Below are positions 5,685 to 62,555 of a stretch of 64,000 nt of DNA, in pieces (the first letter of the stretch is position 1; every line of letters starts with the position of its first letter). Origin of the DNA: Minisyncoccota bacterium (GTDB lineage Bacteria; Patescibacteriota; Minisyncoccia; Phycocordibacterales; UBA1006); NCBI GenBank assembly GCA_036405175.1, contig DASWYC010000002.1, positions 537,080 to 601,079 of the forward strand, in the 5' to 3' direction. Below the pieces are notes generated by a model. It saw nothing but the letters and a program-made list of their open reading frames with translations, was not told the origin of the DNA and did no database searches. The position numbers and the translations under genes were made by a program.

Positions 5685-5809
5685 GGCTTATATGGTTTCT
5701 GAGTAGTCGCGCAGCGGCTGATAGGGAGCGCTATTGCGCAGCTTTGGCGCGACCATATCAGACCGTGAGCGTAGGCTCGGTAGAGGCCGCTACGAAGAAA
5801 CCATATAAG
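5685..5809. repeat. Structured repeat element copy A (long subtype), in the secY-adk spacer, inserted at the centre of palindrome gcttatatggtttct|agaaaccatataagc
   Basis: Shares conserved core with copies at 10043, 18383, 41624 and 45136: agtcgcgcagcggctgata…gcgcgaccatatcagacc.tgagcgtagg.tcggtagaggccgct. Flanked by a 15-bp perfect inverted repeat unique to this copy. Confidence 0.85.
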
Positions 5810-15522: not shown

Positions 15523-16257
15523 TTACTTCAAATTTGCCTTAGTCCATCGATCTTCTTCGTCCTGAGTACTCACTTTTTTAAATTTTGCCAACTTCCCTTT
15601 TACACGCGCTTCGCACTCTGTCCAAGTAGTGTGTTTTTCAAGCTTTCCATCAACAATTGAAAGATACCAACCACCTGCAGATCCAGATTTCTTGGCGGTT
15701 TTTTTTGACGTAGTCTCTGCCTTTACCATAAGCTGCTCAACCGTAAGGGAGTACTTACCGAGTGGTCCTTCATACAGGTCTACATTCTTTCCTTGTGCAT
15801 ATCCTTGAGCAATATCATTTACGCGTTCATTTCCGAGTACACCCACGTGACCATTCACATGAATATACTCAATAGGAAGTTTTTTAAAGAGTTGTAGCTC
15901 ATCATTAAGAGCCATCCAGAGCTCTTTGTTTTTTACAGCCTCACCAGTACTCGTTATCCAATCATTTCTGATCCATCCTTTCATCCAGCTCATTACTCCG
16001 TTGCGAACATATTGAGAGTCTAAATATACATATATATGTACATCCTTATTAATTTTAAGATCACTTAATTTGCGAAGGCCTTCCAAGAGTGCCATCAATT
16101 CAGTTTCGTTATTGGTCGTTCGAGCAAGCTTATCACCAAGTTCATATACTTTTTCTTTTTGCACATCAACCACTAAAGTACCCCATCCCCCAGGACCAGG
16201 ATTTCCTGATGATGCTCCGTCGGTATAGATAATGATTGATTGTTCGCTAGGCTTCAT
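15523..16257 (-). CDS. rnhA: Ribonuclease HI with C-terminal hybrid-binding-domain-like extension
   Basis: RNase H motifs IIIYTDGAS…ETTNNETELMAL…YLDSQYV…HVNGHVG. C-terminal ~80 aa has GWYLSIVDGKLEKHTTWTECEARVKG…, similar to the RNase H1 hybrid-binding domain. Start taken at MKPSEQS, just after the recJ stop. Confidence 0.8.
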   Translation of the reverse strand: MKPSEQSIIIYTDGASSGNPGPGGWGTLVVDVQKEKVYELGDKLARTTNNETELMALLEGLRKLSDLKINKDVHIYVYLDSQYVRNGVMSWMKGWIRNDWITSTGEAVKNKELWMALNDELQLFKKLPIEYIHVNGHVGVLGNERVNDIAQGYAQGKNVDLYEGPLGKYSLTVEQLMVKAETTSKKTAKKSGSAGGWYLSIVDGKLEKHTTWTECEARVKGKLAKFKKVSTQDEEDRWTKANLK

Positions 16258-17899
16258 CATAAGGTATGATATCACGAATAAATAAAACGTACTCGTTACG
16301 GAAACTATCAAACTCTGCACTCCCCACCGCCTGTACGCGCTTTCCTATTTCAATTTTATTCTCGTCACCATAAAACCAAACTCCTCTGAGTGTTTCGGTT
16401 TCACCTTCCAGCGACACTTCATAGTGACTACCGTCTGAACCAAATGATTTAGTGCGCGCAATCGTAAACGGAATTGTTCCAATGAATGGCAACTTAAAGT
16501 CTTGCCCACACGGCTCAATTGCCTTAATTACTTCTACTAACTTTTGAATGTGATGCTTTTTTGCGATAAGAAAATCCACCTCCTCCGTGAGTTCTTCTGA
16601 AACTTTTTGTGACGGAAATGACTCAACTGCTTCAATCCATGGAATAAGATTCTTTTTATCGAGCGCGAATCCACCCGCCTGATGATGTCCTCCATAGGTG
16701 AGTAAATATTGTTTGGTGTATTCAAAAATATCAATCACACTTACTCGTGAGTGAGAGCGACACGATCCGCGCACAACCCCTTCCTCATCTACCGACCACA
16801 CAAACACCGGCACCTCAAACATATCCAAAAGTTTTCCGGCAATAATTCCAACTACTCCTAAATGCCATTTCTTATCTCCGATCACAATAATATTTTTTTG
16901 GAGCAAAACATCTTTTTTCTTTTCTGTCGATCTCACAACTTTTGCAGTTTCAAGTTTGCGTGCTTGGTTGAGTGCCACCAACTTTCGTGCAAGCACATCC
17001 GCATCATCAGAGTTTTTTGCAAGAAATAAATTGATTGCAACATGTGCATGGTCCATACGTGATGCACTGTTAATGAGCGGCACCAACGTGAATGAGATGT
17101 CGCTATATGAAATGTTTTTTATCTTTGCATAAAAAAGAAGTGATGTGAGTCCGATGAGTTTTGTTTTTTGGAGCACGCGCATGCCGTACTGCGCCAAAAT
17201 TCTATTTTGATTTTTGAGCGGCACCTGATCACCAAGTGTTGCAATGCACACCAAGTCAAGAAACCACTTCTCGCATCCTTCAATGAGTTGAGTGTTACCT
17301 CTCTCACGAAGTGTCTGATACAACGCACGACCAAGTTGCCATGCTACGGCTGCGCCACAGATCATGGTGTCACCCGTTCCGAGTTTTGGATTCACAATTG
17401 TGTATGCATCAGGCAGCGTGTCAGCTGGTTCGTGATGATCGGTAACAATCACATCAATTCCTTTCTCTTTCGCGTACGCAACCGTTGCATGTTCCTTGAT
17501 TCCAACATCAACGGTGATGATGAGCGACACCCCATTCTCAATTGCCTCATCAACAGCGCGTGTATGAAATCCGTAGCCTTGAGTGTGACGATTCGGGATC
17601 GCAACATCCGGCTCAATATTGATATCTCTAAAAAATCTCAAAAGTGTTACGGTTGAGCACACACCGTCACAATCATAATCACCGGCAATCATAATGCGCT
17701 CTTTGTGATCGATCGCTTCAATAATACGTGTCACCGCCTTCTCGACACCACCCATCACATATGGTGACTCCAAATCATCATAGGTAAGATCAAGATGTTT
17801 TTTTGCAGGATCAATACTTCGCGTCTTAAGGAGGTGAACAATAATTTCTTCAGGAGTTTGATCGATGATATTCTGTTCTGGAAATTGATACCGCTTCAT
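16247..17899 (-). CDS. recJ: Single-stranded-DNA-specific exonuclease RecJ (DHH/DHHA1)
   Basis: DHH motifs IAGDYDCDGV…, DHHEP, and DHHA1 GGHHQAGG. 550 aa. Confidence 0.85.
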   Translation of the reverse strand: MKRYQFPEQNIIDQTPEEIIVHLLKTRSIDPAKKHLDLTYDDLESPYVMGGVEKAVTRIIEAIDHKERIMIAGDYDCDGVCSTVTLLRFFRDINIEPDVAIPNRHTQGYGFHTRAVDEAIENGVSLIITVDVGIKEHATVAYAKEKGIDVIVTDHHEPADTLPDAYTIVNPKLGTGDTMICGAAVAWQLGRALYQTLRERGNTQLIEGCEKWFLDLVCIATLGDQVPLKNQNRILAQYGMRVLQKTKLIGLTSLLFYAKIKNISYSDISFTLVPLINSASRMDHAHVAINLFLAKNSDDADVLARKLVALNQARKLETAKVVRSTEKKKDVLLQKNIIVIGDKKWHLGVVGIIAGKLLDMFEVPVFVWSVDEEGVVRGSCRSHSRVSVIDIFEYTKQYLLTYGGHHQAGGFALDKKNLIPWIEAVESFPSQKVSEELTEEVDFLIAKKHHIQKLVEVIKAIEPCGQDFKLPFIGTIPFTIARTKSFGSDGSHYEVSLEGETETLRGVWFYGDENKIEIGKRVQAVGSAEFDSFRNEYVLFIRDIIPYDEA

Positions 17900-18382: not shown

Positions 18383-18499
18383 AACAAAAACCACTTTGTA
18401 GCAGTCGCGCAGACGGCTGATAATGAGCACGTTGTGCGAATATATCAGACCGCGAGCGTAGGGCCGATAGAGCCCGCTGCGTACAAAGTGGTTTTTGTT
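18383..18499. repeat. Structured repeat element copy C (short subtype), between convergent HIT and pgk genes, inserted at the centre of the 36-bp palindrome aacaaaaaccactttgta|tacaaagtggtttttgtt
   Basis: Conserved core gcagtcgcgcagacggctgataatgagcacgttgtgcgaatatatcagaccgcgagcgtagggccgatagagcccgctgcg. Flanked by a perfect 18-bp inverted repeat that resembles a split bidirectional terminator. Confidence 0.85.
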
Positions 18500-18515
18500 A
18501 TTTAAGAATGTTTCA

Positions 18516-19643: not shown

Positions 19644-20363
19644 TTATTTGAGTGAATTAATAAACTGAGCGAGCTCGTCCGGCTTGCGTGACAGTGATCC
19701 GATCAAGAACCCATCTACATTAAACTGCGAAAGTTCTTCTGCCGAAAAATCTGATACTGATCCACCGTAAAGCACCTGATCAAATCCAAGACTTCTAATA
19801 TGTTCGATCGTGCGGATACAGTGTGTAACTACTTCCTCATGTATCATGCCAAACATATCATCTTTATTTGTTGAGATAAGCCACTGCGGTTCATATGCGA
19901 CAAAAATCACAAAATTTTTTGTTATTTTTAGTCTATGCAAATTCTCTAATTCCTGATAGAGGGTCTCCATAATGTCTGATGTTGGCGTTGCCTCTCCAAC
20001 GCAAACTACCAACGTTATTGTGTCTGGTGCAGCAGCAAGAATACGTTCAACTTCTTCTGCGGTCATTCCTGCGCGGCGTTCATCCGAATGACCCACCAAT
20101 CCGTACTTAACGCCAAATTGTGAAATAAACTGAGGATCAGTCGAGCCGGTACCGCCTCCCTCACTCAAACGTACACCTTGCACACCAACCCCGACCTTTC
20201 CCAAAACCTCTACCCCAAGATTGGCAACCTTCTCAACAAATACTGGTGGTACAAACATCACCACCTCCTGCTGAATACCCGAATACCCAGCAACCAACTC
20301 CTTGTACTCCTCGACCGACTTCAACGCATTCTTTGGATTCAAAAAAATATGGTATGGTTTCAT
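19644..20363 (-). CDS. tpiA: Triosephosphate isomerase
   Basis: …VAYEPQWLI…, …GHSDERR…, …YGGSV… TIM signature segments. 239 aa. Confidence 0.85.
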   Translation of the reverse strand: MKPYHIFLNPKNALKSVEEYKELVAGYSGIQQEVVMFVPPVFVEKVANLGVEVLGKVGVGVQGVRLSEGGGTGSTDPQFISQFGVKYGLVGHSDERRAGMTAEEVERILAAAPDTITLVVCVGEATPTSDIMETLYQELENLHRLKITKNFVIFVAYEPQWLISTNKDDMFGMIHEEVVTHCIRTIEHIRSLGFDQVLYGGSVSDFSAEELSQFNVDGFLIGSLSRKPDELAQFINSLK

Positions 20364-32900: not shown

Positions 32901-33815
32901 TTACCGAGAGTGGAATTTTTTATGAATATCCATCAAATGTTTATCCGTAACGTGCGTATAAATTTGTGTTGTTCCAATATGCGCATGACCAAGCATCGCC
33001 TGTACACTTCTAAGATCCGCACCGTTCTCTAATAAGTTGGTTGCAAATGAATGTCTAAATACGTGCGGTGTTACGCGCTTTGAAATTCCTGCCTTCACGG
33101 CATAAAATGCAACGAGTCGCTCGATAGAACGTGGAGTTAATCGTCCTTCAATGGTTTTATTAAGTGTTCTATGTGAAACGTCTCTAAATAAGGGCTCGGC
33201 CATATCTTTGCGAGCTTTCAAATAGTTTTGAATCGCAGTACGCGCTTCATCAGACACAAATACCACTCTAATTTTTTCTCCTTTTCCTCTGATTGAAAAT
33301 TCTGAACGAGATAAATCCAAATCTCTGTTTAATGAACATAATTCTGAAACACGAAGGCCGGTAGAGTAGAGAAGTTCCAAAAGCGCACGATCACGTAACC
33401 CCTTTTCTTCTGAAAGATCTGGCGCATCCAAGATACGGGTTAATTCTTGAAAGGTAAGAAAATCAATATCACGCTCACCAACCTTAGCTAATTCAATCAT
33501 TTCAGGGCGCGCGGCAGAAATACCACGTTTCATAAGAAATTTGAGCAGCATTCTCAAGGCAATTAAATAGTAGTTTTGGGTCTTTTTCTTCATCGTATCC
33601 TGTGTTTGACCCTTTCTTGAAGCACCTTTTTTACGATTTAAAATCCCACGGAATGCACGAATCGATTCCTCGGTAATATCTTTGGTATTTTTAATATTCA
33701 TCGTAGCAATATATTCACGCAAATAGCGTTCATAGTTTTCAAGAGTTTTCAGGCTGCGACCCTTTTCGATCTCCAAATATTCAAGAAAACTGCGCAAAGC
33801 TTGATTAATATCCAT
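32901..33815 (-). CDS. Tyrosine site-specific recombinase XerC/XerD family
   Basis: C-terminal catalytic box …HVFRHSFATNLLENGADLRSVQAMLGHAHIGTTQIYTHV. 304 aa. Confidence 0.85.
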   Translation of the reverse strand: MDINQALRSFLEYLEIEKGRSLKTLENYERYLREYIATMNIKNTKDITEESIRAFRGILNRKKGASRKGQTQDTMKKKTQNYYLIALRMLLKFLMKRGISAARPEMIELAKVGERDIDFLTFQELTRILDAPDLSEEKGLRDRALLELLYSTGLRVSELCSLNRDLDLSRSEFSIRGKGEKIRVVFVSDEARTAIQNYLKARKDMAEPLFRDVSHRTLNKTIEGRLTPRSIERLVAFYAVKAGISKRVTPHVFRHSFATNLLENGADLRSVQAMLGHAHIGTTQIYTHVTDKHLMDIHKKFHSR

Positions 33816-35241: not shown

Positions 35242-35249
35242 ATATATTT

Positions 35250-36041
35250 CTAAAGAATAAAATCTTTTGAAAACTTTTTTGTATAGGCTTCAGCTTTTTT
35301 AATATTCCGTGAAATTCTTAGTTTGACTTTGTGATTTCCATTAACCAACTCTGTTACACGAGCAACCAATTCTTTTTCTGTATCCGATGTTTCATAAATG
35401 CCGTCCAAGTCTTCAGCAAAACCAACCGTAAATTGAGCTTCAAAAACATAATCACCCAACACATTCACATATTCATATGTAGGAATTTTATAATCAAGGC
35501 CCGTATTAATAGAAATAAAATCTGATCGATACTTCTTTGCAAACAACAAATCATTTTCTGTATCTTTTGCAACACTTACACATAACCTACGCTTATCTTG
35601 ATTAAATTTATTAAATACAGCCTCTTCACTTTCTTTATGGGCCACCATAAACCACTCGTGGGGATCGTAAATAAAAACTGGTCCGTTTGTTTCTGAATAT
35701 GCCTGCAAAAAGTAATGCGCCCAGATTCTGTCTGTCTCCAAAGGATTAAAGAACGAAAGTGCAATAGAATCACCCTCTTCAAGATGGTTTGGAAGAATAT
35801 TTGACGGAGAGAGGGAAGCAATGAGCTTTTCTTTCCATAAGTTATTTATAAGGAATTGGGTACCCTGTTTAAGCACCACCTTTTCTTCAATCAGATTGTT
35901 GAGGGATTTATACATTCCTTGTTTTGAGTATTTAGCTTGTTTATTTATTGAACCTAAAAGATCTTTTCCTGATTGAGGGGATATTTGAAGAAGCGTATCA
36001 ATAATAAGTTCTTTTAAATGTTCTGAGCGAAAGAGATTCAT
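35250..36041 (-). CDS. Putative wHTH transcriptional regulator (TrmB/MarR-like N-terminus + ~200-aa C-terminal domain), paralog 1
   Basis: N-terminal …SPQSGKDLLGSINKQAKYSKQGMYKSLNNLIEEKVV… Colinear similarity to ORF 37694-38491 over the full length, for example …KVKLRISRNIKK… versus …KFTLRIYKNSQK…. Confidence 0.5.
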   Translation of the reverse strand: MNLFRSEHLKELIIDTLLQISPQSGKDLLGSINKQAKYSKQGMYKSLNNLIEEKVVLKQGTQFLINNLWKEKLIASLSPSNILPNHLEEGDSIALSFFNPLETDRIWAHYFLQAYSETNGPVFIYDPHEWFMVAHKESEEAVFNKFNQDKRRLCVSVAKDTENDLLFAKKYRSDFISINTGLDYKIPTYEYVNVLGDYVFEAQFTVGFAEDLDGIYETSDTEKELVARVTELVNGNHKVKLRISRNIKKAEAYTKKFSKDFIL

Positions 36042-36146
36042 ATGTTATTAATAGTATAAACCAATGGTTTACTATTTTTATATTCACTACTCTTACTAAG
36101 CAGATCTACACATTTTTAAACTTTTTCTTTACAAAGTGACCAATAT

Positions 36147-36172
36147 TTGACTATTTACTGAAAGTATTGCAA
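36147..36172 (+). promoter_or_regulatory. Operator/promoter-like motif TTGACT-atttaCTGAAAGTATTGcaa upstream of the 36264 gene (copy 1 of 2)
   Basis: Near-identical motif at 38617-38643. Both lie in the divergent spacer next to a paralogous wHTH regulator. Confidence 0.55.
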
Positions 36173-36263
36173 ATATCAGATACAGTATCCTAGAAATCAT
36201 TTAAAAAACCTGTTTACTGGTTACCCTAAAATGGAAAACCTATGCTCATCCTACGCTTAAGAA

Positions 36264-36731
36264 ATGGATAGTAAACATAAACCATATACGAACATGTCAC
36301 TATTAATGTTTATCATTATCGCAGCCGTTATTCTTATCATTAGCGCATATTTCATTATTGGACAAATGTCTATGATGCCAAAGATCTACCCTGAGGCTAT
36401 TGCTAAGCATGGCGATATTGAGCAGCTCAACATCAAAAAGGACAGAATGGCAAGGATATTTTTTATCATAAGTATTATCTTTTTTATAATAGGCTTACCC
36501 ACGTACTTCTTGTTTGAAACTTTTGGTGCAATGGTACGCTCAGAAGCAGGGAGGGCTTCTCTTCTTGCACTAGAAGCATTGGGTTTTTCTATGTTCTACC
36601 TTATGGTTTACTTAAAAAATCTCCACGATGACGAAAAAGTCCTTACGAATGAGCCCGTTGATCTGAGCCAGATTCCCAATACTGCACCAGATTTTATAGA
36701 GGCTATTCCAGGGGCTTCTAACCTCACATAG
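36264..36731 (+). CDS. Hypothetical membrane protein (3 TM helices)
   Basis: Hydrophobic segments LLMFIIIAAVILIISAYFIIG, IFFIISIIFFIIGLPTYFLF, LLALEALGFSMFYLMVYL. Confidence 0.5.
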   Translation: MDSKHKPYTNMSLLMFIIIAAVILIISAYFIIGQMSMMPKIYPEAIAKHGDIEQLNIKKDRMARIFFIISIIFFIIGLPTYFLFETFGAMVRSEAGRASLLALEALGFSMFYLMVYLKNLHDDEKVLTNEPVDLSQIPNTAPDFIEAIPGASNLT

Positions 36732-36909
36732 AAGTCTTTAGCGTTTTTCACAATAAGAGTAATTATAATAATTACTCTTATTTTTTTATCCACCTTGGTA
36801 AACCTTTACTTTACAATCTATTAATTATTTACATATTTTAAGCAATTTTGTCAATAATCTACTAGAATGGTTCTTGAAGCAACTACCTGTTTCATTCAAA
36901 CCAAAAACT

Positions 36910-37680
36910 ATGAAAAAAGAACTTATCATCATTGTCGGAGCAAACGGAGAAATCGGAACTGAATATATCAACTCCTTAAAAACCAATTTGAATATTGAAA
37001 TACTTGCTGTTACACTTTCAAAACCTTATCACGATCCTTCAATTAACAATATTAGAGTTGACGTGCGAGATTATGAGGCGATTGAGCAGGCACTTGCTCA
37101 CATTAATTTACAAGACTACTTACGCGTTATTTATCTTCACTCTATTGGAACAGACGTATTTGAGTGGACTAACTACCCTCAAAAGCTTTATCGAAAAACT
37201 ATTCCGGAAAGCGTTTATGATTCAAACGTAAACACCTTTAAATATCTTTTACGATATTTATCAGAAAAGCTAAAGCGCACCAATACTGAACTTAAGGTGG
37301 TACAAATTGCCGGAGTTGCTGATAAATATGGATTTATGGTGATTGAATCGTTTCATGAGTGTAAAAAAATCACGAGAGCCTATGCGCGAGACCTTTGTGA
37401 TCTATATCCAAACATTTCAGGGCTTACAATTAATATCACCTCTTGTATCACCAAATCAGCATTGGAAGTGCGTCCTTTTGCGGATACTTCAAAGGGATGG
37501 CTTACACCTCAGGAAGTTGTATCTGAAAGTATTTCTTCAATACTAAGTAGCGAATGTGGATATCAAGAAATAAATATTCTCAAGCCGCTTCCCAGCTTTA
37601 ATCCTCAGGAATATTACGAGAATCAAGATCGTATATATGAAAAGTGGGCTAAAGAAATTGGAATCAAAAAAGCCATGTAA
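36910..37680 (+). CDS. NAD(P)-binding Rossmann-fold protein (SDR/epimerase-like)
   Basis: N-terminal IIIVGANGEIGTEY glycine-rich dinucleotide-binding motif. Confidence 0.5.
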   Translation: MKKELIIIVGANGEIGTEYINSLKTNLNIEILAVTLSKPYHDPSINNIRVDVRDYEAIEQALAHINLQDYLRVIYLHSIGTDVFEWTNYPQKLYRKTIPESVYDSNVNTFKYLLRYLSEKLKRTNTELKVVQIAGVADKYGFMVIESFHECKKITRAYARDLCDLYPNISGLTINITSCITKSALEVRPFADTSKGWLTPQEVVSESISSILSSECGYQEINILKPLPSFNPQEYYENQDRIYEKWAKEIGIKKAM

Positions 37681-37697
37681 TTTCATGGCTTTTTTAT
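37666..37697. terminator. Bidirectional terminator aaaaaagccatgtaatttcatggctttttt
   Basis: Stem gccatg…catggc with A/T flanks, between convergent genes. Confidence 0.65.
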
Positions 37698-38491
37698 ATA
37701 ATTTCTTTTTTAATTCTTTTCCAAATTTTCTGTTGTTTTTGAGAGTTTTTGTAAATACGGAGCGTAAACTTTGAAGGATTATCAATTACCCTATTAACAA
37801 TATCTCTTGGTGTACCAGATTCAAAAAAATCAGTCATCATATCCATCCACTGTGAATCATATGTAGTCTCAATCATATAATCATCAAACAAGTTAAACCC
37901 TACATATTTATCAAGCTTTTCGTCAAACACCACCTGCACACCCAGAGATCTAATTTCCGAGATATCAGCCATCATGGTGTCATTAATAGCAGGAAGAGAG
38001 ACCCAAACGATCGAGTATCCAAAACTTTGCAAGTGCTTGATAAAAAGTGTTGCCTGTTCTTTTGAGTACCGGAAATACATTGAATACGGCTCAAACAAAC
38101 AATAATATCGCTTTTCTTTCTGAGACTTTTTTAAAAGGAAAGCTGCATTGTCCCAAAAGTTATTAAGATCCTTAAAAGTTTCAAATACGAATGACACCTT
38201 GGAGGTGTCTTTAATTTCCGGTAAAAACGCAAGAGTAGCATCATCCTTATAATAAGTTTTAGTGAGTGCTAGGTAATATTCTCGAATACGAGCAATAAAT
38301 AATGCAGAAATAGCTAATATTTTTGCATTTTCGATAATTACTTCTTTATCCTTAAGCTTATTAATAATCTTATAAACACCCTGAGGAGTCATGGAAAGCT
38401 TTTTTGAAATATCAGAAATAAGTTTCTTTTTTATAATTGGTCCTTTTTCGAGTAGCTCAATTACTTCTTTTTCTGGAGAATCAAACACCAT
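37694..38491 (-). CDS. Putative wHTH transcriptional regulator, paralog 2
   Basis: N-terminal …ISKKLSMTPQGVYKIINKLKDKEVI… Colinear similarity to ORF 35250-36041. Confidence 0.5.
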   Translation of the reverse strand: MVFDSPEKEVIELLEKGPIIKKKLISDISKKLSMTPQGVYKIINKLKDKEVIIENAKILAISALFIARIREYYLALTKTYYKDDATLAFLPEIKDTSKVSFVFETFKDLNNFWDNAAFLLKKSQKEKRYYCLFEPYSMYFRYSKEQATLFIKHLQSFGYSIVWVSLPAINDTMMADISEIRSLGVQVVFDEKLDKYVGFNLFDDYMIETTYDSQWMDMMTDFFESGTPRDIVNRVIDNPSKFTLRIYKNSQKQQKIWKRIKKEII

Positions 38492-38616
38492 ATTGAAATT
38501 AGTGTATCATATTTTAAACTCAATGTTTATTTTTTTAATTAAAACTACCCCATACACCACATTAAATGCAAAATTTGTTTATTTTTAAACTATTTATTTA
38601 AAATGGTGCTGTATTA

Positions 38617-38643
38617 TTGACTTTTTCTGAAAGTATTGTGACT
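38617..38643 (+). promoter_or_regulatory. Operator/promoter-like motif TTGACT-ttttCTGAAAGTATTGtga upstream of the 38698 gene (copy 2 of 2)
   Basis: Matches 36147-36172. Followed by tatact -10-like hexamer at 38651. Confidence 0.55.
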
Positions 38644-38697
38644 TTAAACTATACTGTTCTCAGATAAATTATTTACAAACCAAAAACATTTAAAAAT

Positions 38698-39168
38698 ATG
38701 AAAAATATATTAGTATACGGACAAAGAAACAGCTTCATTGAAAATGACCTTAATACAGGCTGGACTATATATGGCAATGTATCAGTTTTTGCAGCCTACA
38801 AAGGCATGCATCTATCAGAAGAAGGTGGCTTTGGTGAGAATGAAGTACAAATAGAGTTCTCTCAAAAAATGTCATCACACCTCTCGCTATCATTATTGAT
38901 CATGCTTCAAGAATATTCTCATTTATTCGACAAAGTATATGTTTATCTTGATGGGGTAAGGTATACAACACTCATTGATGAGTTACAATTCCGCAATATC
39001 CCAGCAGATAAAGTTATATTCTTTATTATGCCCGACAAACAGTCTACACTTAAGAAAGAACAGTATCTGGAGGAGCGTGGGTATGGAAAGTCTGAAATAA
39101 TTGATTGTGACTCGTGTGCGGTGGAAGAAATAGGAATACTTATAAACAATTTTAAAAAGGAGGTATAA
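38698..39168 (+). CDS. Hypothetical protein (156 aa)
   Basis: Clean ORF. Operator motif upstream, strong terminator downstream. No recognisable motif. Confidence 0.5.
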   Translation: MKNILVYGQRNSFIENDLNTGWTIYGNVSVFAAYKGMHLSEEGGFGENEVQIEFSQKMSSHLSLSLLIMLQEYSHLFDKVYVYLDGVRYTTLIDELQFRNIPADKVIFFIMPDKQSTLKKEQYLEERGYGKSEIIDCDSCAVEEIGILINNFKKEV

Positions 39169-41549: not shown

Positions 41550-41554
41550 ATTTA

Positions 41555-41582
41555 TTAAAGCTCCACATATGTGGAGCTTTAA
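41555..41582 (+). terminator. Terminator ttaaagctccacatatgtggagctttaa after pnp
   Basis: 11-bp stem. Confidence 0.7.
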
Positions 41583-41623
41583 TTTTCTAAACAGATTATT
41601 GCAAGTGCTTTTAAGGTCTTCTC

Positions 41624-41734
41624 AAATCTCTATCATCAAGCAGTCGCGCAGCGGCTGATAATGAGCACATGGTGCGAATATATCAGACCGCGAGCGTAGG
41701 CCCGGTAGAGGCCGCTGCGCGATGATAGAGATTT
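41624..41734. repeat. Structured repeat element copy D (short subtype), downstream of the pnp terminator, at the centre of palindrome aaatctctatcatc|gatgatagagattt
   Basis: Core cagtcgcgcagcggctgataatgagcacatggtgcgaatatatcagaccgcgagcgtaggcccggtagaggccgctgcgc. Inner 10-bp stem gcgcagcggc/gccgctgcgc. Outer stem 14 bp. Confidence 0.85.
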
Positions 41735-41757
41735 AATATGAGCTATAATAAAACCAC

Positions 41758-43545: not shown

Positions 43546-45078
43546 ATGACCGATAAAATTTCATATGCACGATGCTACACCATTCAACCAAGCTTGAGGG
43601 GTGGTAGTTTAGTGTGTGTAGAAGCTGACGTTACCAGAAACTTATTCAATTACACCGTTGTTGGACTCCCGGATAAAGGAGTTCAAGAATCCAGTGAGCG
43701 CATTCATGGTGCACTTAAAAATAGTGGACTTCCGTCACCAAAGCAGGGATCACTTAAAACAACTATTTCATTATCACCGAGCAATCTTAAAAAAGAGGGT
43801 TCGCATTATGATGCACCGATTGCACTAGCATTTTTATCTGCATTGGAAGGATTTCCAATTCCTGGTGATTGTTTAATTGGTGGTGAACTTACGTTGTTTG
43901 GTGAAGTATTGCCTATTCAAGGTGTACTTTCGTTTGCCTATGCAGCATTGCGAGAAGGGAAAACAAGGTTATTTGTACCTACTCAACATGTTGAGATTCT
44001 AAGCATGTTTAATGATTTAGAGATTTATGGATTTTCAACGATTCGTGAATTGGTGAATCATTTTAAAGAGATTGAAGTTATTCTGCCAGCGCACCCTACT
44101 ATATTTAATCAAACAAATAATTCTATTCTCTATGAATTAGGAGATGTTGTTGGACAAGATCATGCATTGCGTAGTTGCTTAATTGCAGCATGTGGTCACC
44201 ATAATTGCAGTTTTTATGGACCACCGGGAACCGGCAAAACCATGCTTGCCCGAGCACTTGCTGATTTGTTGCCGCCACTTTCATATACTGAAGCACTCGA
44301 GACCTATGAGATTTACTCCTATACTCATGAATCTTTTTCTCAATTACCAACAAAAGCTCCTTTTAGAACTCCTCATCATACTTCGAGTTATGTAGCACTA
44401 CTAGGTGGAGGATCATCAGTTCAGCCTGGTGAAATCTCTTTAGCACACAATGGCGTATTGTTTATGGATGAATTTCCTGAATTTGAAACACGTGTTTTAG
44501 AAGCGTTGCGTCAACCGCTTGAAGATAAACAGATTGTAGTAGCACGCGTGAAACAAACCATAGTATTGCCAGCACGTTTCTTACTCATAACTGCATTGAA
44601 TCCGTGCCCGTGTGGCTATAGATTTTCTGATCACAAAGTCTGCACCTGTACGCAACAACAGCTTTTAAAATATAGAAAGAAGTTGAGTGGTCCTATTATG
44701 GATAGAATTGATATGTGGATTCCGGTGCTTCATACATCGCTTCAAAATATTAGCACCGCAAAGGGGGCACCAAAAACTGCTGAATATCGGAATAGTATTC
44801 AAAAAACTCAAGAAGCAATTAAAGAGCGCTCTTTAAATCTCTTTAAAAAAGAACTTCACAATAGTGAACTTTCGCTTAAACAACTACAAATGCTGCCGAT
44901 TTCTGACCGTGCTCGCCAAATTCTGATTGGTTCATGTGAAAAGTTAGGGTTATCGCCCCGCGTATTCTTAAAGATTTATAAACTCGCCCGAACCATTGCC
45001 GACATTGAACAATCAGCATCTATTCAAGAAAACCATGTTTTGGAAGCGCTCCAACAACGCAAGCCACCCCAACTTTAA
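43546..45078 (+). CDS. YifB/ComM-family Mg-chelatase-like AAA+ ATPase
   Basis: N-terminal Lon-protease-like domain. Walker A GPPGTGKTMLA. …LFMDEFPEF… sensor/arginine finger. C-terminal domain. 510 aa. Confidence 0.85.
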   Translation: MTDKISYARCYTIQPSLRGGSLVCVEADVTRNLFNYTVVGLPDKGVQESSERIHGALKNSGLPSPKQGSLKTTISLSPSNLKKEGSHYDAPIALAFLSALEGFPIPGDCLIGGELTLFGEVLPIQGVLSFAYAALREGKTRLFVPTQHVEILSMFNDLEIYGFSTIRELVNHFKEIEVILPAHPTIFNQTNNSILYELGDVVGQDHALRSCLIAACGHHNCSFYGPPGTGKTMLARALADLLPPLSYTEALETYEIYSYTHESFSQLPTKAPFRTPHHTSSYVALLGGGSSVQPGEISLAHNGVLFMDEFPEFETRVLEALRQPLEDKQIVVARVKQTIVLPARFLLITALNPCPCGYRFSDHKVCTCTQQQLLKYRKKLSGPIMDRIDMWIPVLHTSLQNISTAKGAPKTAEYRNSIQKTQEAIKERSLNLFKKELHNSELSLKQLQMLPISDRARQILIGSCEKLGLSPRVFLKIYKLARTIADIEQSASIQENHVLEALQQRKPPQL

Positions 45079-45103
45079 CGTGAGTAATTTTTGATTAAAA
45101 AAT

Positions 45104-45130
45104 ATAGCCAGAATTATTCTGGCTTTTTAT
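45104..45130 (+). terminator. Terminator atagccagaattattctggctttttat after comM-like gene
   Basis: Stem agccagaat/attctggct plus T-run. Confidence 0.7.
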
Positions 45131-45135
45131 ATTCC

Positions 45136-45254
45136 AAACACTTCTTGTGGAGCAGTCGCGCAGTGGCTGATACGAGCGCCATTGCGTAGCTTTGGCGCGA
45201 CCATATCAGACCACGAGCGTAGGGTCGTAGCCCGCTGCGACACAAGAAGTGTTT
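45136..45254. repeat. Structured repeat element copy E (long subtype), between convergent comM-like and M23 peptidase genes, at the centre of palindrome aaacacttcttgtg|cacaagaagtgttt
   Basis: Core gagcagtcgcgcagtggctgatacgagcgccattgcgtagctttggcgcgaccatatcagaccacgagcgtagggtcgtagcccgctgcga. Outer stem is a perfect 14-bp inverted repeat. Confidence 0.85.
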
Positions 45255-45255
45255 A

Positions 45256-46266
45256 TTAACACGCTGTCATCCCAAATGATACACATGGAATTGGTGGACC
45301 GTTACGAATTTCAAAATGAAGGTGAGGACCAGTTGATTGCCCGGTATTTCCTGATTCTCCAATCACCGTTCCTTGTGAAACATACTCACCAACTGATACA
45401 AAGTTTTTTGAATGGTGTGCATACAATGTCTGTGATCCGTTTGCGTGCTCAATAACAATATAGGTTCCATATCCACCACCCCATCCACCTGATGAAGCAA
45501 TGATTACCGTTCCACTCATTGAGGCAACTACAGGAGTTCCAACAGGTGCGCCAATATCGATTGCGCGGAAACGTCCATGATATCCTTGTGTTTTTACTCC
45601 TTTACCAGCAAGCGGATGTTTATACGATGAACTTCCAGCGCCAGAGCTACTTGTTGCTTTTTCTTTCTTAGCAATCTTTTCAAGCACTTTTGGTGTTTGT
45701 TTTGGCTTTACGGGTGTTGCAACCACAAGAGGTTCTGCTCCTGGAACAATGATTTTATCGCCAACCTTAATCGTTCCTTCACCGTCAATACTGTTAAAAT
45801 CACGAATTTCAGATTCTTGTGCTTTATATAATTGTGCAATTTTAGAAATAGTTTCTCCTGATTTCACGACGTGGGTCACTCCATCAACTGGCAAAATTAC
45901 CAATTGCTGCCCAACTTTAAGTGCATCTTTAGCATTTAAACCATTTTGCCATCGAATAGTGTTTACGGTTACGCCAAATTTCTGTGAAAGAGAAGAAAGA
46001 GTATCGCCAGTTTGAACCGTATAGGTGGTAATATCTCCGTATTCTTCATCATCAGGATCAACAATTCCTTCTTCAGAAATTGATTCAAATCCGCGAGAAC
46101 TCAAAATGAGTGGCATCTCGGTTGGTGTTGGCATGGTATCTGCCGTTAAACTTTGTTTTGAAAGTAAATCAACGTGATCATTCACCACAGCATCTTGAGC
46201 CTGTGCCTTACTTGAATGAATTAAAATACTGATTCCAGCAAGCAATAAACACCCCACCCCAAGCAC
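45256..46266 (-). CDS. Secreted M23-family metallopeptidase with two LysM domains
   Basis: Signal peptide. LysM segments (…YTVQTGDTLSSLSQKFGVTVNTIRWQN…; …HVVKSGETISKIAQLYKAQESEIRDFN…). M23 core …HLHFEI… with HxxxD/HxH pattern. Confidence 0.8.
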   Translation of the reverse strand: MLGVGCLLLAGISILIHSSKAQAQDAVVNDHVDLLSKQSLTADTMPTPTEMPLILSSRGFESISEEGIVDPDDEEYGDITTYTVQTGDTLSSLSQKFGVTVNTIRWQNGLNAKDALKVGQQLVILPVDGVTHVVKSGETISKIAQLYKAQESEIRDFNSIDGEGTIKVGDKIIVPGAEPLVVATPVKPKQTPKVLEKIAKKEKATSSSGAGSSSYKHPLAGKGVKTQGYHGRFRAIDIGAPVGTPVVASMSGTVIIASSGGWGGGYGTYIVIEHANGSQTLYAHHSKNFVSVGEYVSQGTVIGESGNTGQSTGPHLHFEIRNGPPIPCVSFGMTAC

Positions 46267-55463: not shown

Positions 55464-55489
55464 AAAAGCCTCAATTTCTTGAGGCTTTT
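55464..55489. terminator. Bidirectional terminator aaaagcctcaatttcttgaggctttt
   Basis: 9-bp stem gcctcaa…ttgaggc with A/T flanks, between convergent genes. Confidence 0.7.
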
Positions 55490-55739
55490 ATCGTATATGA
55501 GTAATATAAATTTGTTGTTTTCTTAGAGATTCGATAATTTCTTCAGTATGAGCAAGAAGATTTTGTTTTTGAGAGGGAAGAAGCTTAATAGTGAGTGCTG
55601 CGTGACCTTTTTTAACATGAGCTTGTGTGAAAGGCACATCAATATACTGCTGCAATGCTTCAAAAATCACCAATTCTTCTGGCTTTTTTATTGAAAAGTG
55701 CTGAAGGAGCTGAGGAATCTGTGCAGTAATATGATTCAT
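55488..55739 (-). CDS. Small protein downstream of dnaN, possibly DUF721/DciA-like
   Basis: 83-aa ORF. …TQAHVKKGHAALTIKLLPSQKQNLLAHTEEIIESL… loosely fits the DUF721 pattern. Conserved position after dnaN. Confidence 0.35.
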   Translation of the reverse strand: MNHITAQIPQLLQHFSIKKPEELVIFEALQQYIDVPFTQAHVKKGHAALTIKLLPSQKQNLLAHTEEIIESLRKQQIYITHIR

Positions 55740-61001: not shown

Positions 61002-62555
61002 TTACTTCACAAAATCAACCAACGATACCATCCAAGGTTCCATAGTTAAGCGATTAATGAATCCAAAGTATTTATTTTCCGAACTAACCACTCCCTTAAA
61101 TACATCTACTTCTTCTGTAGGTTGAGGAAGACTAATTAGAATATTATCTATGATGCTATACGCCTTAATTTCATCATTCGTACTATAGCCCTTAAGCCAC
61201 TCGTCGGGACTTAATCCACCATCAGCAGGTATTCCGCAAATAATATATTTTGAATCATGGGTCCAAGCGCATTTATCAGGAAGGGTAACAAATGGAACTT
61301 GTATAGAAATGAACGTTGAATTATTAAGGATATAAAGTGTTTGGTGATCGTCACTTTCTGAATAGAGGGTGTAATTCCCATCAGGGCTTACTAATGTCAT
61401 AAGTCCGGGAATATTTTCTAATAATGTAGTGCGAGCGCCAGTTTTTACATTAAATTTATATGAAACACCGTCATATCCTGTTGCGGGGCGGGCTGTTAGT
61501 ATTAAGGTCTCTGAGTTTGGAAATTCATGATTAAAATCAGTGAATGGTGATGTAAAAATTTGATTATAGGTTGCTGGTTTTGATACATCACTTATAACTC
61601 CAAAGGAAATAGAGTCGTTATTAAGCAAAAGAATGCTTCCCTTAGTGTCTGTGGGTGACAATAACATATCATTTACAGTATTGCTTTGGAGTTGATATGT
61701 AAGGAGATATTCTGGTATTTCTTCACCACTTGCTCTTTTTTCTTCCTTGATGATGTCTGAGCACGTATTTGAAAGAAGATTTAATGTAGTTTGGTCAAGT
61801 AAGCCTGTTGGTTTTTTAGAAAGACTTTTTTGTGTTTGAAATACCTGAATAAGACTTTGAACATTTGTCTTGTAGTCTGTAAAAGGAGGAAAACTTGCTG
61901 GAATTATAGAGTTAACTTGAAGTAGTCCGTATATTTGCTCGAGTTCTTCCTGATTATAAATATTTTTTTTATTAATTACCAGAGAATAAGGGCAATAATT
62001 AGTATTATTTTTAGTAAGATAGCCAACACGATGACTCAAGCTGGTAAGTGTTCGCGAACGGGCAATAATAGTTGAGAGATTATTTCCAAAACTCGCATCA
62101 AACAGCTCTGGCGTATCACCGCTCGCAAAAAGCGTTTCTTGAGGCTGGGCATTTTTAAAAGCTATGCGTTTAATAGTTCCATTTTCTTCTGTAATTAAAC
62201 GTGGAAATGGAAGAAATTGCGGAAGATCTGGAGAGCTTGAGACTATAGATTCCTCAGGGACGCTAATTCCCACAGTAGGGGTGGTAGTTAATTTAACTAC
62301 ATTTGGAATACCTTGTGAATCATTATTAAAATCTTTAAGACTATTAGGAATTATTTTTTTTGTTTGTTCTCCAAGATATTCCGTAACGGTATCAACGGTT
62401 TCGCGTGTAAGATTTTTAATACCTTCAAAAAGAGTAGGATTTCCCTCGCTAGTCTTAGGTTCTCTGCTTTTGAGCGCTGTAACCACAATAATGATTACAA
62501 TTAAAATACCACCAACAATAAGAAATAACTTTCCGCGAGACTGTCCTGAATTCAT
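61002..62555 (-). CDS. Membrane-anchored extracytoplasmic protein with probable beta-propeller (PD40/TolB-like) C-terminal region
   Basis: N-terminal TM helix LFLIVGGILIVIIIVVTAL. Repeated …DG.Y… strand-like segments (SPDGNYTLYSESDD…, DGVSYKFNVKTG…). Confidence 0.5.
   Translation of the reverse strand: MNSGQSRGKLFLIVGGILIVIIIVVTALKSREPKTSEGNPTLFEGIKNLTRETVDTVTEYLGEQTKKIIPNSLKDFNNDSQGIPNVVKLTTTPTVGISVPEESIVSSSPDLPQFLPFPRLITEENGTIKRIAFKNAQPQETLFASGDTPELFDASFGNNLSTIIARSRTLTSLSHRVGYLTKNNTNYCPYSLVINKKNIYNQEELEQIYGLLQVNSIIPASFPPFTDYKTNVQSLIQVFQTQKSLSKKPTGLLDQTTLNLLSNTCSDIIKEEKRASGEEIPEYLLTYQLQSNTVNDMLLSPTDTKGSILLLNNDSISFGVISDVSKPATYNQIFTSPFTDFNHEFPNSETLILTARPATGYDGVSYKFNVKTGARTTLLENIPGLMTLVSPDGNYTLYSESDDHQTLYILNNSTFISIQVPFVTLPDKCAWTHDSKYIICGIPADGGLSPDEWLKGYSTNDEIKAYSIIDNILISLPQPTEEVDVFKGVVSSENKYFGFINRLTMEPWMVSLVDFVK

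Follow-up and report, generated by a model that had tools for sequence, protein, structure and literature searches.

The regulators Reg1 and Reg2, encoded on the minus strand at positions 35250-36041 and 37694-38491 of the window (the whole 64-kb stretch of DNA analyzed here), belong, as their sequences indicate, to a large unnamed and uncharacterized family of ultra-small (Candidate Phyla Radiation; CPR) bacteria, and their likely binding site is a palindrome approximately 30 bases upstream of the sequence block shared by the two divergent spacers. The block itself, TTGACT-N4/5-CTGAAAGTATTG, is assigned to positions -46 to -24 of the target promoter, i.e., to the -35 hexamer CTGAAA with conserved flanks. 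The palindrome and the promoter probably form a cassette of operator and promoter that is controlled by TrmB-like local regulators and drives strain-variable cargo genes. Transcriptional regulation is very poorly understood in CPR bacteria, which cannot be cultured by themselves and in which few regulators are recognizable. The locus opens onto a family whose diverged members number in the hundreds and for which a confident predicted fold, a consensus operator, a Lys/G base-contact rule, and a fixed promoter geometry can be proposed from sequence alone; together, these provide targets for in vitro work and for regulon prediction in uncultured genomes.

Reg1 (263 aa) and Reg2 (265 aa), whose reading frames and orientations are those of the original prediction, align colinearly over their full length (22% identity, BLASTP E = 7e-12), as expected for the distant paralogs they were proposed to be. 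Reg1 is nearer to the homologs of other organisms (~30% identity, E = 1e-33) than to Reg2, and sequence comparison places the two as anciently diverged paralogs. For this reason, the idea that a regulator-operator module had been duplicated as a unit is abandoned: only the promoter cassette was copied. The family comprises 832 representatives at E<=1e-3, all of approximately 260 to 290 aa; Reg1 scores 250 bits against the family HMM, and Reg2, a divergent member, scores 182 bits. In model searches, no Pfam or NCBIfam model covered the Reg1/Reg2 family; Reg1 gave no match to Pfam TrmB (PF01978), and Reg2 gave only sub-threshold matches to HTH_24 and HTH_11.

A single chain is predicted to fold into a winged helix (residues 1 to 65 of Reg1), a linker helix, and a phospholipase D (PLD)-like α/β domain, as in archaeal TrmB and TrmBL2, so that all three elements of the TrmB fold are present in the prediction. 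At the sequence level, PF01978 matched just 2 of 78 family members (E ~0.003), Regulator_TrmB (PF11495) matched 0 of 78 at E<=0.01, and a search of PDB sequences with the family profile did not retrieve TrmB at E<=10. The sole invariant residue over the 78 sequences is Tyr44, which sits in the predicted recognition helix (residues 40 to 52; S-K-Q-G-M-Y44 in Reg1 and T-P-Q-G-V-Y in Reg2). The PLD catalytic motif HxK(x)4D is absent, since the conserved His stands within Y-N-P-H-E-W-F and position +2 is not a Lys, and we propose that the domain may be a non-catalytic PLD-fold sensor. Reg2 has Tyr in place of this conserved His and lacks several family-conserved residues of the C-terminal domain (Asp104, His128, Glu139, and Tyr191 in Reg1 numbering).

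The divergent arrangement of regulator and target that was originally noted proved to be a hallmark of the family: the upstream neighbor is divergent in 55 of 60 homologs and almost always so in 80 metagenome loci. The partners encode short-chain dehydrogenase/reductase (SDR)-like, AdoMet-decarboxylase-like, or unknown small proteins and are not sugar-related. Within the intervening spacers, the palindrome AGTAAAC-N5-GTTTACT is conserved: of 48 non-redundant spacers, 40 contain it at <=2 mismatches in 14 positions, where 0.07 would be expected. The best target -10 lies at +57 from the palindrome center in 23 of these 40 loci and at 56 or 59 in 3 more, a spacing that could also arise simply because the divergent promoters interleave. 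The half-sites vary with the regulator. Among the 59 scored members with a Lys in the recognition helix, G occurs in both half-sites in 47 and in one in 7, and all 8 members without that Lys lack the G, these tallies being counts of sequences rather than of independent events. This co-variation suggests a base-contact rule in which the Lys pairs with the half-site G; Lys regulators (T-K-Q, e.g., Reg1) would correspond to AGTAAAC-N5-GTTTACT and T-P-Q regulators (e.g., Reg2) to TTTAAAC-N5-GTTTAAA.

In the window, perfect cores (TAAAC-N5-GTTTA) occur only twice, each within approximately 20 nt of a regulator start codon, and 6 of the 8 matches with <=1 mismatch in the 64-kb scan lie within 36057-38600. 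The first perfect core (36057-36071) belongs to site O1 of Reg1, AGTATAAACCAATGGTTTACT (36053-36073), which has the family consensus and overlaps a minus-strand TATACT -10 hexamer 12 nt before the Reg1 ATG; it is a putative autoregulatory operator. The second (38515-38529) belongs to O1 of Reg2, TTTAAACTCAATGTTTATT (38513-38531), which has T-type half-sites and lies ~21 nt before the ATG of Reg2. Farther into each spacer is a second operator-like palindrome, box A. That of cassette 1, TTTAAACTTTTTCTTTACA (36115-36133, center 36124), combines one T-type and one G-type half-site and has one core mismatch, while that of cassette 2, TTTAAACTATTTATTTAAA (38584-38602, center 38593), is T-type (Reg2-type); both are imperfect, mismatching once in the 10-nt core and 2 to 4 times over the 14 specified positions. 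The leader of the membrane-protein gene contains a third operator-like site, O3, TTTAAAAAACCTGTTTACT (36200-36218, one mismatch), which matches the G-type half-site perfectly in its right half and may function as an operator. A putative operator of the SDR gene, GGTAAACCTTTACTTTACA (36797-36815, center 36806), has two G-type (Reg1-type) half-sites. The palindromes centered at 36124, 36806, and 38593 stand at the +57 spacing, with a -10-like hexamer at exactly +57 in all three promoters. A small multi-promoter regulon is plausible.

Both divergent spacers do carry the block TTGACT-N4/5-CTGAAAGTATTG on the plus strand, as first described: copy 1, TTGACT-ATTTA-CTGAAAGTATTG, at 36147-36169 (+23 to +45 from the box A center), and copy 2, TTGACT-TTTT-CTGAAAGTATTG, at 38617-38638 (+24 to +45). 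The TTGACT hexamers occupy 36147-36152 and 38617-38622, and the exact 12-mer is found just twice in 64 kb (36158-36169 and 38627-38638), with 11 nt between it and the -10 hexamer in either spacer. By consensus matching, on which all promoter assignments here rest, the target -35 is CTGAAA (36158-36163 and 38627-38632), followed after 17 nt by TACAGT (36181-36186) in the membrane-protein promoter and TATACT (38650-38655) in the promoter of the 156-aa gene, both at +57 from the box A center. A leftward promoter on the opposite strand places -10-like and -35-like hexamers on either side of copy 1. A 12-mer shared by two AT-rich spacers is not rare by itself (2.9% of mononucleotide shuffles); the significance lies in the colinear similarity of ~60 nt, which starts at ATTTTTAAAC and includes the 12-mer; its local alignment score is 52, versus 22 ± 3.2 for shuffled spacers, and none of 2,000 shuffles reaches it. 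The block is also distinct from the general promoter consensus of the genome, the other promoters having TTGACA. As an operator, it gives way to the family-conserved palindrome, which is located elsewhere in both spacers, because the block sits at the target -35 position of the family layout and is identical beside three regulators with differing palindromes; i.e., the palindrome co-varies with the regulator whereas the block does not.

The ~100-nt cassette, consisting of box A, the core promoter, and a leader, is found in five copies in three related genomes, each before a different, unrelated small gene; in this species group, at least five such genes carry it. In the sister strain L001, the cassette is kept and the reading frames differ from the start codon onward, so that different genes take the place of cargo gene 2; thus, between near-identical strains, the promoter that is predicted to be regulated stays and the gene behind it is exchanged. 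L001 contains a second cassette without an adjacent regulator. L109, with flanking genes ~84% identical, encodes a Reg2 homolog (40% identity) with its own site, TTTAACAAAAAATGTTAAA, and has a cassette 1.7 kb away in which box A reads TTTAACATAAAATGTTAAA and the shared block is unchanged (21 of 21 bases), while the adjacent segments differ. Conservation over the copies is block-wise, at 17 of 20 positions in box A, 21 of 23 in the shared block, and ~35% in the segments between, and in all five the block keeps its distance from box A and from the -10 to within 1 nt. The sister strain without Reg1 is also without the membrane-protein cassette.

Conservation of the 23-nt block, especially of TTGACT, 5 nt ahead of the -35 hexamer assigned here, exceeds the need of such a hexamer alone, and three other explanations of the block were considered. 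In the first, which we judge unlikely, the block is itself a binding site of the regulator, either the primary operator, as originally proposed, or a secondary site over the -35 that a tetramer binds together with box A, in the manner of LysR-type regulators at their two sites. This would account for a block kept between flanks that are near random, and the block has some dyad character: copy 1 contains TACT-GAA-AGTA, a palindrome of the TrmB type TACT-N3-AGTA (PMC4158304), as well as ATTTACT, which comes close to a perfect half-site; four copies have the palindrome ACTTT-N5-AAAGT; and the block center is ~38 nt from that of box A. The dyad is, however, just 4 to 5 bp long and imperfect or differently spaced among copies, its half-sites are everted, which misfits the dimer geometry implied by 7-N5-7, and nothing comparable occurs at that position in 40 family loci. 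Moreover, it is box A, and not the block, that changes with the regulators. In the second explanation, which is quite improbable, the block would be recognized by an alternative sigma factor at its -35, or by an unlinked second transcription factor, and would define a promoter class for accessory genes. The assigned -35 (C/ATGAAA) does depart from the TTGACA of the genome's other promoters, the conserved sequence reaches 11 nt beyond it on the upstream side and 6 nt on the downstream side, and in three genomes one block precedes five cargo genes that are unrelated. Nevertheless, the -10 hexamers are ordinary for the genome (TATACT type) and stand at the usual distance of 17 nt, the loci have no linked gene for a candidate sigma factor or a further regulator, and CTGAAA fits the family -35 TTGAnA at 4 of 5 specified positions and at the exact family position. 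Shared ancestry alone, with recently duplicated cassettes whose common words have not yet diverged, is very improbable: although the cassette was clearly copied (the second copy in L001 and the fifth in L109 attest to this) and a 12-mer common to AT-rich spacers has by itself p ~0.03, the divergence is block-wise rather than uniform, L109 retains the block among changed segments, and the spacings are held.

The preferred reading is a regulated cassette promoter. The comparisons establish the homology and fold of the regulators, the conservation and spacing of the sites, and their co-variation with the protein, while binding, the sign of regulation, and the ligand are inferred. A regulator dimer would bind the 7-N5-7 palindrome. 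At the proximal site (36053-36073 or 38513-38531), which overlaps the regulator's own promoter, binding would cause autorepression; at box A, 57 nt upstream of the target -10 and approximately -69 from the start site, it would activate the cassette promoter, with its weak -35, when the C-terminal domain senses a ligand. Many target promoters of the family are near the consensus TTGACA-17-TATAAT, which disfavors obligatory activation and makes repression of both promoters a live alternative.

A similar dependence on position is described for TrmB-family members, which activate from a site upstream of the promoter and repress from one downstream (PMC4158304). Reg1 and Reg2 are about as long as TrmBL2 (264 aa), a protein without the effector subdomain (PMC4158304). 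Tyr50 of TrmB is required for DNA recognition (PMC4158304), and the invariant Tyr44, in the predicted recognition helix, may be its counterpart. TrmB-family sites, TATCAC-N5-GTGATA (TGM) and TACT-N3-AGTA (PMC4158304), include hexamer-N5-hexamer palindromes and AGTA/TACT words, comparable to the 7-N5-7 palindrome found here. On the other hand, sequence-level membership is lacking, as the profile matches given above indicate; the hosts are bacterial (here, a Candidatus Paceibacterota genome) with sigma-70-type promoters, whereas TrmB is archaeal; and the regulators are local, are divergent from SDR-like, AdoMet-decarboxylase-like, or small unknown partners, and keep a constant spacing of 57 nt, whereas TrmB governs a global sugar regulon with sugar transporters as partners. 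LysR-type systems share the divergent regulator gene, an interrupted palindrome near -65/-70 of the target promoter and also within or overlapping the regulator promoter, and a second, less symmetric conserved block over the target -35; their fold is unrelated, and Reg1 and Reg2 have no LysR substrate-binding domain, so that the resemblance may be one of working rather than of membership. Local autoregulated repressors of the MarR, PadR, and IclR types likewise pair a small winged-helix dimer, as proposed here, with a palindrome in the divergent spacer, but their operator lies over the target core promoter rather than upstream of the -35, and the PLD-fold C-terminal domain is not an IclR, GAF-like, or MarR dimerization domain.

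In the membrane-protein cassette, the operators are hybrids: box A and O3 each join a Reg1-type half-site to a Reg2-type one. A joint reading, which we regard as doubtful, is that the cassette is a portable "regulon plug" and that a Reg1:Reg2 heterodimer acts at the hybrid operators. If so, copies of the cassette, some accompanied by a regulator gene and others not, would enter strain-variable islands of these reduced genomes, newly acquired small genes would come under the control of the resident TrmB-like regulator, and the membrane-protein promoter would respond only when both paralogs are present. Integron-type gene cassettes have an adjacent IntI integrase with attI and an attC recombination site flanking each cassette; here, a Xer-like tyrosine recombinase is encoded nearby, but the exchange of cargo starts within a conserved promoter, at the start codon.

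Cargo gene 1 (36264-36731, plus strand) encodes a predicted membrane protein of 155 aa with three transmembrane segments and no family assignment. Its transcription unit ends at a plus-strand intrinsic terminator (36752-36789), a 14-bp AT-rich hairpin (36752-36782; ΔG = -12.9, z = -3.1) followed by a T-run. Downstream on the same strand, an open reading frame that begins at TTG 36874 encodes, from ATG 36910 (36910-37680), a 256-aa SDR-like Rossmann protein of divergent sequence, whose profile matches solved SDR structures (E = 8e-10). The membrane-protein and Rossmann genes that were originally placed together are thus both present, but the strong terminator and the SDR gene's own operator and promoter indicate two transcription units rather than one operon. 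The SDR promoter, with TGTCAA (36849-36854) at +43 to +48 and TAGAAT (36863-36868) at +57, has exactly the layout of the SDR-type promoters of the family and is derived differently from the cassette promoters. SDR homologs are the divergent neighbor in 5 loci at 42 to 46% identity and in ~11 more at 22 to 24%, and by this comparison the SDR gene is the family-typical partner of Reg1. Where the SDR gene and Reg2 converge, in a 13-nt gap, a hairpin (37666-37695) is terminator-like on both strands because an A-run and a T-run flank its stem. Cargo gene 2 (38698-39168, plus strand) encodes a 156-aa protein of unknown function. A gene for a Xer-like tyrosine recombinase (32901-33815) is located 1.4 kb away and is present in both strains.

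The two minus-strand open reading frames at 35250-36041 (Reg1, 263 aa) and 37694-38491 (Reg2, 265 aa), described in the original prediction as paralogous winged-helix regulators, align end to end with 22% identity (E = 7e-12), and each is indeed divergent from a plus-strand gene. Neither protein reached a Pfam or NCBIfam threshold. A word-indexed homolog search, run with each regulator and then with a 78-sequence profile, gave nothing but self-matches and a single variant of 97% identity, and an exhaustive HMMER profile search was therefore needed. At E ≤ 1e-3 the latter recovered 832 cluster representatives, of which 368 were also within E ≤ 1e-10; every one is approximately 260 to 290 aa long and is matched over its full length. 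The one source name given for Reg1 is that of a Candidatus Paceibacterota (CPR) genome. The family is therefore large, and it has no name: one member is annotated as "Lrp family regulator" (JGI), and the others are hypothetical or unnamed. Structure prediction from just the two sequences was of no use (pLDDT 39), whereas the AlphaFold2 model obtained from the 78-sequence alignment is confident (pLDDT 93.7) and consists of a winged helix (residues 1 to 65), a linker helix, and an α/β domain. This last domain takes the phospholipase D (PLD) fold (Foldseek; Zucchini, Nuc, MITD1), and it lacks the HxK motif that PLD enzymes use for catalysis. Because a winged helix and a linker helix are combined with a PLD-fold domain lacking HxK, the build is like that of archaeal TrmB and TrmBL2, although the sequences fall outside the TrmB Pfam families; i.e., the suggested TrmB_C-like C-terminal domain is borne out by the fold of the predicted model and not by sequence membership. 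No literature on TrmB in CPR/Patescibacteria was found.

A scan of metagenome contigs, with a 21-sequence subset as the query alignment, yielded 80 related loci. In 55 of 60 family members the upstream neighbor is transcribed divergently, with a spacer of some 50 to 180 nt separating the two genes, and the palindrome AGTAAAC-N5-GTTTACT occurs with at most 2 mismatches in 14 positions in 40 of 48 nonredundant spacers (0.07 in shuffles), usually 25 to 29 nt away from the regulator start codon. The -10 element of the best sigma-70-like promoter facing the neighbor started exactly 57 nt from the palindrome center in 23 of 40 loci and at 56 or 59 nt in 3 more. When all loci are aligned on the palindrome center, the target promoter has a -35 element TTGAnA at +34 to +39 and a -10 element TATAAT at +57 to +62, and on the opposite strand the regulator-direction -10 and -35 elements lie near +19 to +24 and +43 to +48, respectively. 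This fixed layout places the operator at approximately -69 of the target, and the operator is predicted to overlie the regulator's own promoter or to fall just downstream of it. The commonest divergent partner is a short-chain dehydrogenase/reductase (SDR; approximately 16 loci, 5 of them at 42 to 46% identity). A second recurrent partner (L033, L037, L041, L053, L093, and L101) is a protein of approximately 125 aa with a weak, subthreshold match to S-adenosylmethionine decarboxylase (Pfam AdoMet_dc, E = 1.7e-4).

The perfect core TAAAC-N5-GTTTA is found only twice in the 64 kb (36057-36071 and 38515-38529), in both cases within approximately 20 nt of the start codon of Reg1 or Reg2, and six of the eight cores with at most one mismatch lie between 36057 and 38600. 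A further palindrome, box A, is centered on 36124 in spacer 1 and on 38593 in spacer 2, and the predicted -10 elements TACAGT (36181) and TATACT (38650) follow at +57. The same distance separates the site centered on 36806 from TAGAAT (36863) upstream of the Rossmann gene (36910-37680, plus strand), which encodes a divergent SDR; TGTCAA at +43 to +48 of this site matches the SDR-type promoters of the family. A strong hairpin terminator closes the preceding membrane-protein gene (36264-36731, plus strand), and the two genes are thus separate transcription units. Reg1 and the SDR gene look like an ancestral pair, between which the membrane-protein cassette sits.

The motif that had been proposed as the operator (TTGACT, 4 or 5 nt, and a 12-mer; 36147-36169 and 38617-38638) is a different element. 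The 12-mer CTGAAAGTATTG has two exact copies in the 64 kb, one in each divergent spacer, with TTGACT ahead of it and TACAGT or TATACT 11 nt after it. In DNA this AT-rich (39.6% GC), a 12-mer common to both spacers is by itself weak evidence (p ~0.03, shuffle test), and the sharing is nevertheless real, since colinear similarity between the spacers extends over 60 nt with a score of 52 versus 22 ± 3.2 in shuffles (0 of 2,000). In the genome contig collection without this genome, TTGACTN{5,6}TGAAAGTATTRYRA gave 23 matches, approximately the chance number, all in unrelated taxa. The motif falls at +23 to +45 from the palindrome center, and the CTGAAA within it is the predicted target -35 element, 17 nt ahead of the -10 element; the rest of the motif flanks this hexamer.

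Two lines of covariation, from the recognition helix and from a related genome, point to the palindrome as the element recognized by the regulator. Of the scored members, 59 have Lys in the T-K-Q motif; G is present in both of their half-sites (AGTAAA) in 47 cases and in one half-site in 7, and it is present in none of the eight members without this Lys (Reg2, P0003, P0028, P0007, P0130, P0018, and two metagenome members). According to this rule, the site beside Reg1 and the SDR operator are Reg1-type (G-type), the site beside Reg2 and the spacer-2 box A are Reg2-type (T-type), and the membrane-protein promoter has two hybrids, namely its box A and a third site (36200-36218). In the related genome (L109; flanking genes ~84% identical), a 2.6-kb island (L109 146-2762) between the counterparts of 44933-45077 and 45256-46151 carries a regulator, a 117-aa protein, a methyltransferase, and a cassette with a 150-aa gene. 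The regulator is homologous to Reg2 (40% identity) and has TTTAACAAAAAATGTTAAA as its own site; 1.7 kb away, in the cassette that precedes the 150-aa gene, itself unrelated, box A reads TTTAACATAAAATGTTAAA, TTGACTTTTTATGAAAGTATT is identical, and the -10 element is again at +57. Box A therefore tracks the regulator, and the shared motif does not, which argues that the latter is a core promoter (-35 region) rather than an operator. These features describe a well-defined TrmB-like local regulator in CPR bacteria whose operator code can be deduced. In one member (L116, 1380-1500) the recognition-helix Lys is replaced by Phe (S-F-Q) and the palindrome is ATTCAAC-N5-GTTGAAT, which hints that the code may be wider than the Lys/G rule.

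The original finding is thus real and biologically coherent, and its central reading needs correction also with respect to the copied unit, which had been taken for a regulator-operator module and appears from sequence comparison to be the promoter cassette (approximately 100 nt: box A, core promoter, and leader). Five copies occur in three genomes ahead of five unrelated small genes, and conservation is blockwise, covering box A, the 23-nt -35 block, the -10 element, and the first ~20 nt of the leader, with near-random sequence in between. In the sister strain (L001), Reg2 is 97% identical, the flanks are 93 to 96% identical, and 35247-37690 (Reg1, membrane protein, and SDR) is missing entirely. 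Its spacer-2 cassette is kept up to the start codon, beyond which a different 126-aa protein is encoded in place of the 156-aa protein (38698-39168, plus strand). Downstream of that gene lie another copy of the cassette and a gene for a 92-aa membrane protein, which no regulator gene adjoins. The SDR-gene spacer was ruled out as a third copy by sequence (scores of 24 to 27, as in shuffles), despite having the family layout. The cargo proteins have no match to defense, phage, or curated families, and together with the regulators they gave nothing meaningful against PADLOC and PHROGs. The locus is an instructive case of strain-variable genes behind a conserved promoter whose regulation is predicted. 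The 2.44-kb segment absent from L001 has the same terminator tail, TTTTTATATA, on both edges (35245-35250 and 37686-37695; L001 6792-6801), and this microhomology could have mediated its insertion or deletion.

The homology, fold, site conservation, spacing, and covariation of the regulator system are established computationally. Regulator dimers would bind the palindrome; the sites close to the start codons are predicted to overlap TATACT/TACACT -10 elements, where binding would result in autorepression, and box A, at approximately -69, would act on the cassette promoter. Activation from box A is favored on three grounds: TrmB-family members activate from sites upstream of the promoter (PMC4158304), the cassette has a weak -35 element, and its spacing is helix-face specific. 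Repression of both promoters is a plausible alternative, consistent with the near-consensus promoters at many family targets. The 23-nt block may also be a secondary regulator site or the target of another factor, since the whole block, TTGACT above all, is strongly conserved in a manner that the -35 reading does not explain; the core promoter reading is preferred. TTGACT as the target -35 element was ruled out by the lack of a -10-like hexamer 16 to 18 nt on in any copy, and a sigma-54 or sporulation-sigma-like promoter was ruled out by unfit words and spacing.

Several other features of the region were observed. The leaders of the SDR and 156-aa genes have in common the 12-mer CAAACCAAAAAC just ahead of the ATG (36894-36905 and 38677-38688); the related GTTCATTTAAAAC recurs in target-gene 5' untranslated regions of several family loci (L065, L076, L079, and L096), and GTTCATT is found in 7 of 51 target leaders (0.12 expected). 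Leaderless or near-leaderless mRNAs may be common in this genome because a TATACT-type -10 element sits only 6 to 12 nt ahead of many start codons in the window (e.g., 16247-17899, 19644-20363, 48792, 51361, 55488-55739, and 61002-62555). A GC-rich repeat of ~95 nt (…GCAGTCGCGCAGCGGCTGATA…TATCAGACCGCGAGCGTAGG…CCGCTGCG) is located in four intergenic regions of this AT-rich genome, always on the plus strand (~5690-5790, 18400-18500, 41630-41730, and 45140-45235). It has no match in Rfam, and RNAalifold gave 35 pairs, 10 with compensatory changes, from four copies only; the repeat could represent a structured RNA that has yet to be described, or else an element of the REP/MITE type. Two of its sites coincide with strain-variable gene content: at 41550-41757, L001 carries an additional gene for a GNAT acetyltransferase (2046-2522), and 45079-45255 is the site of the L109 island.
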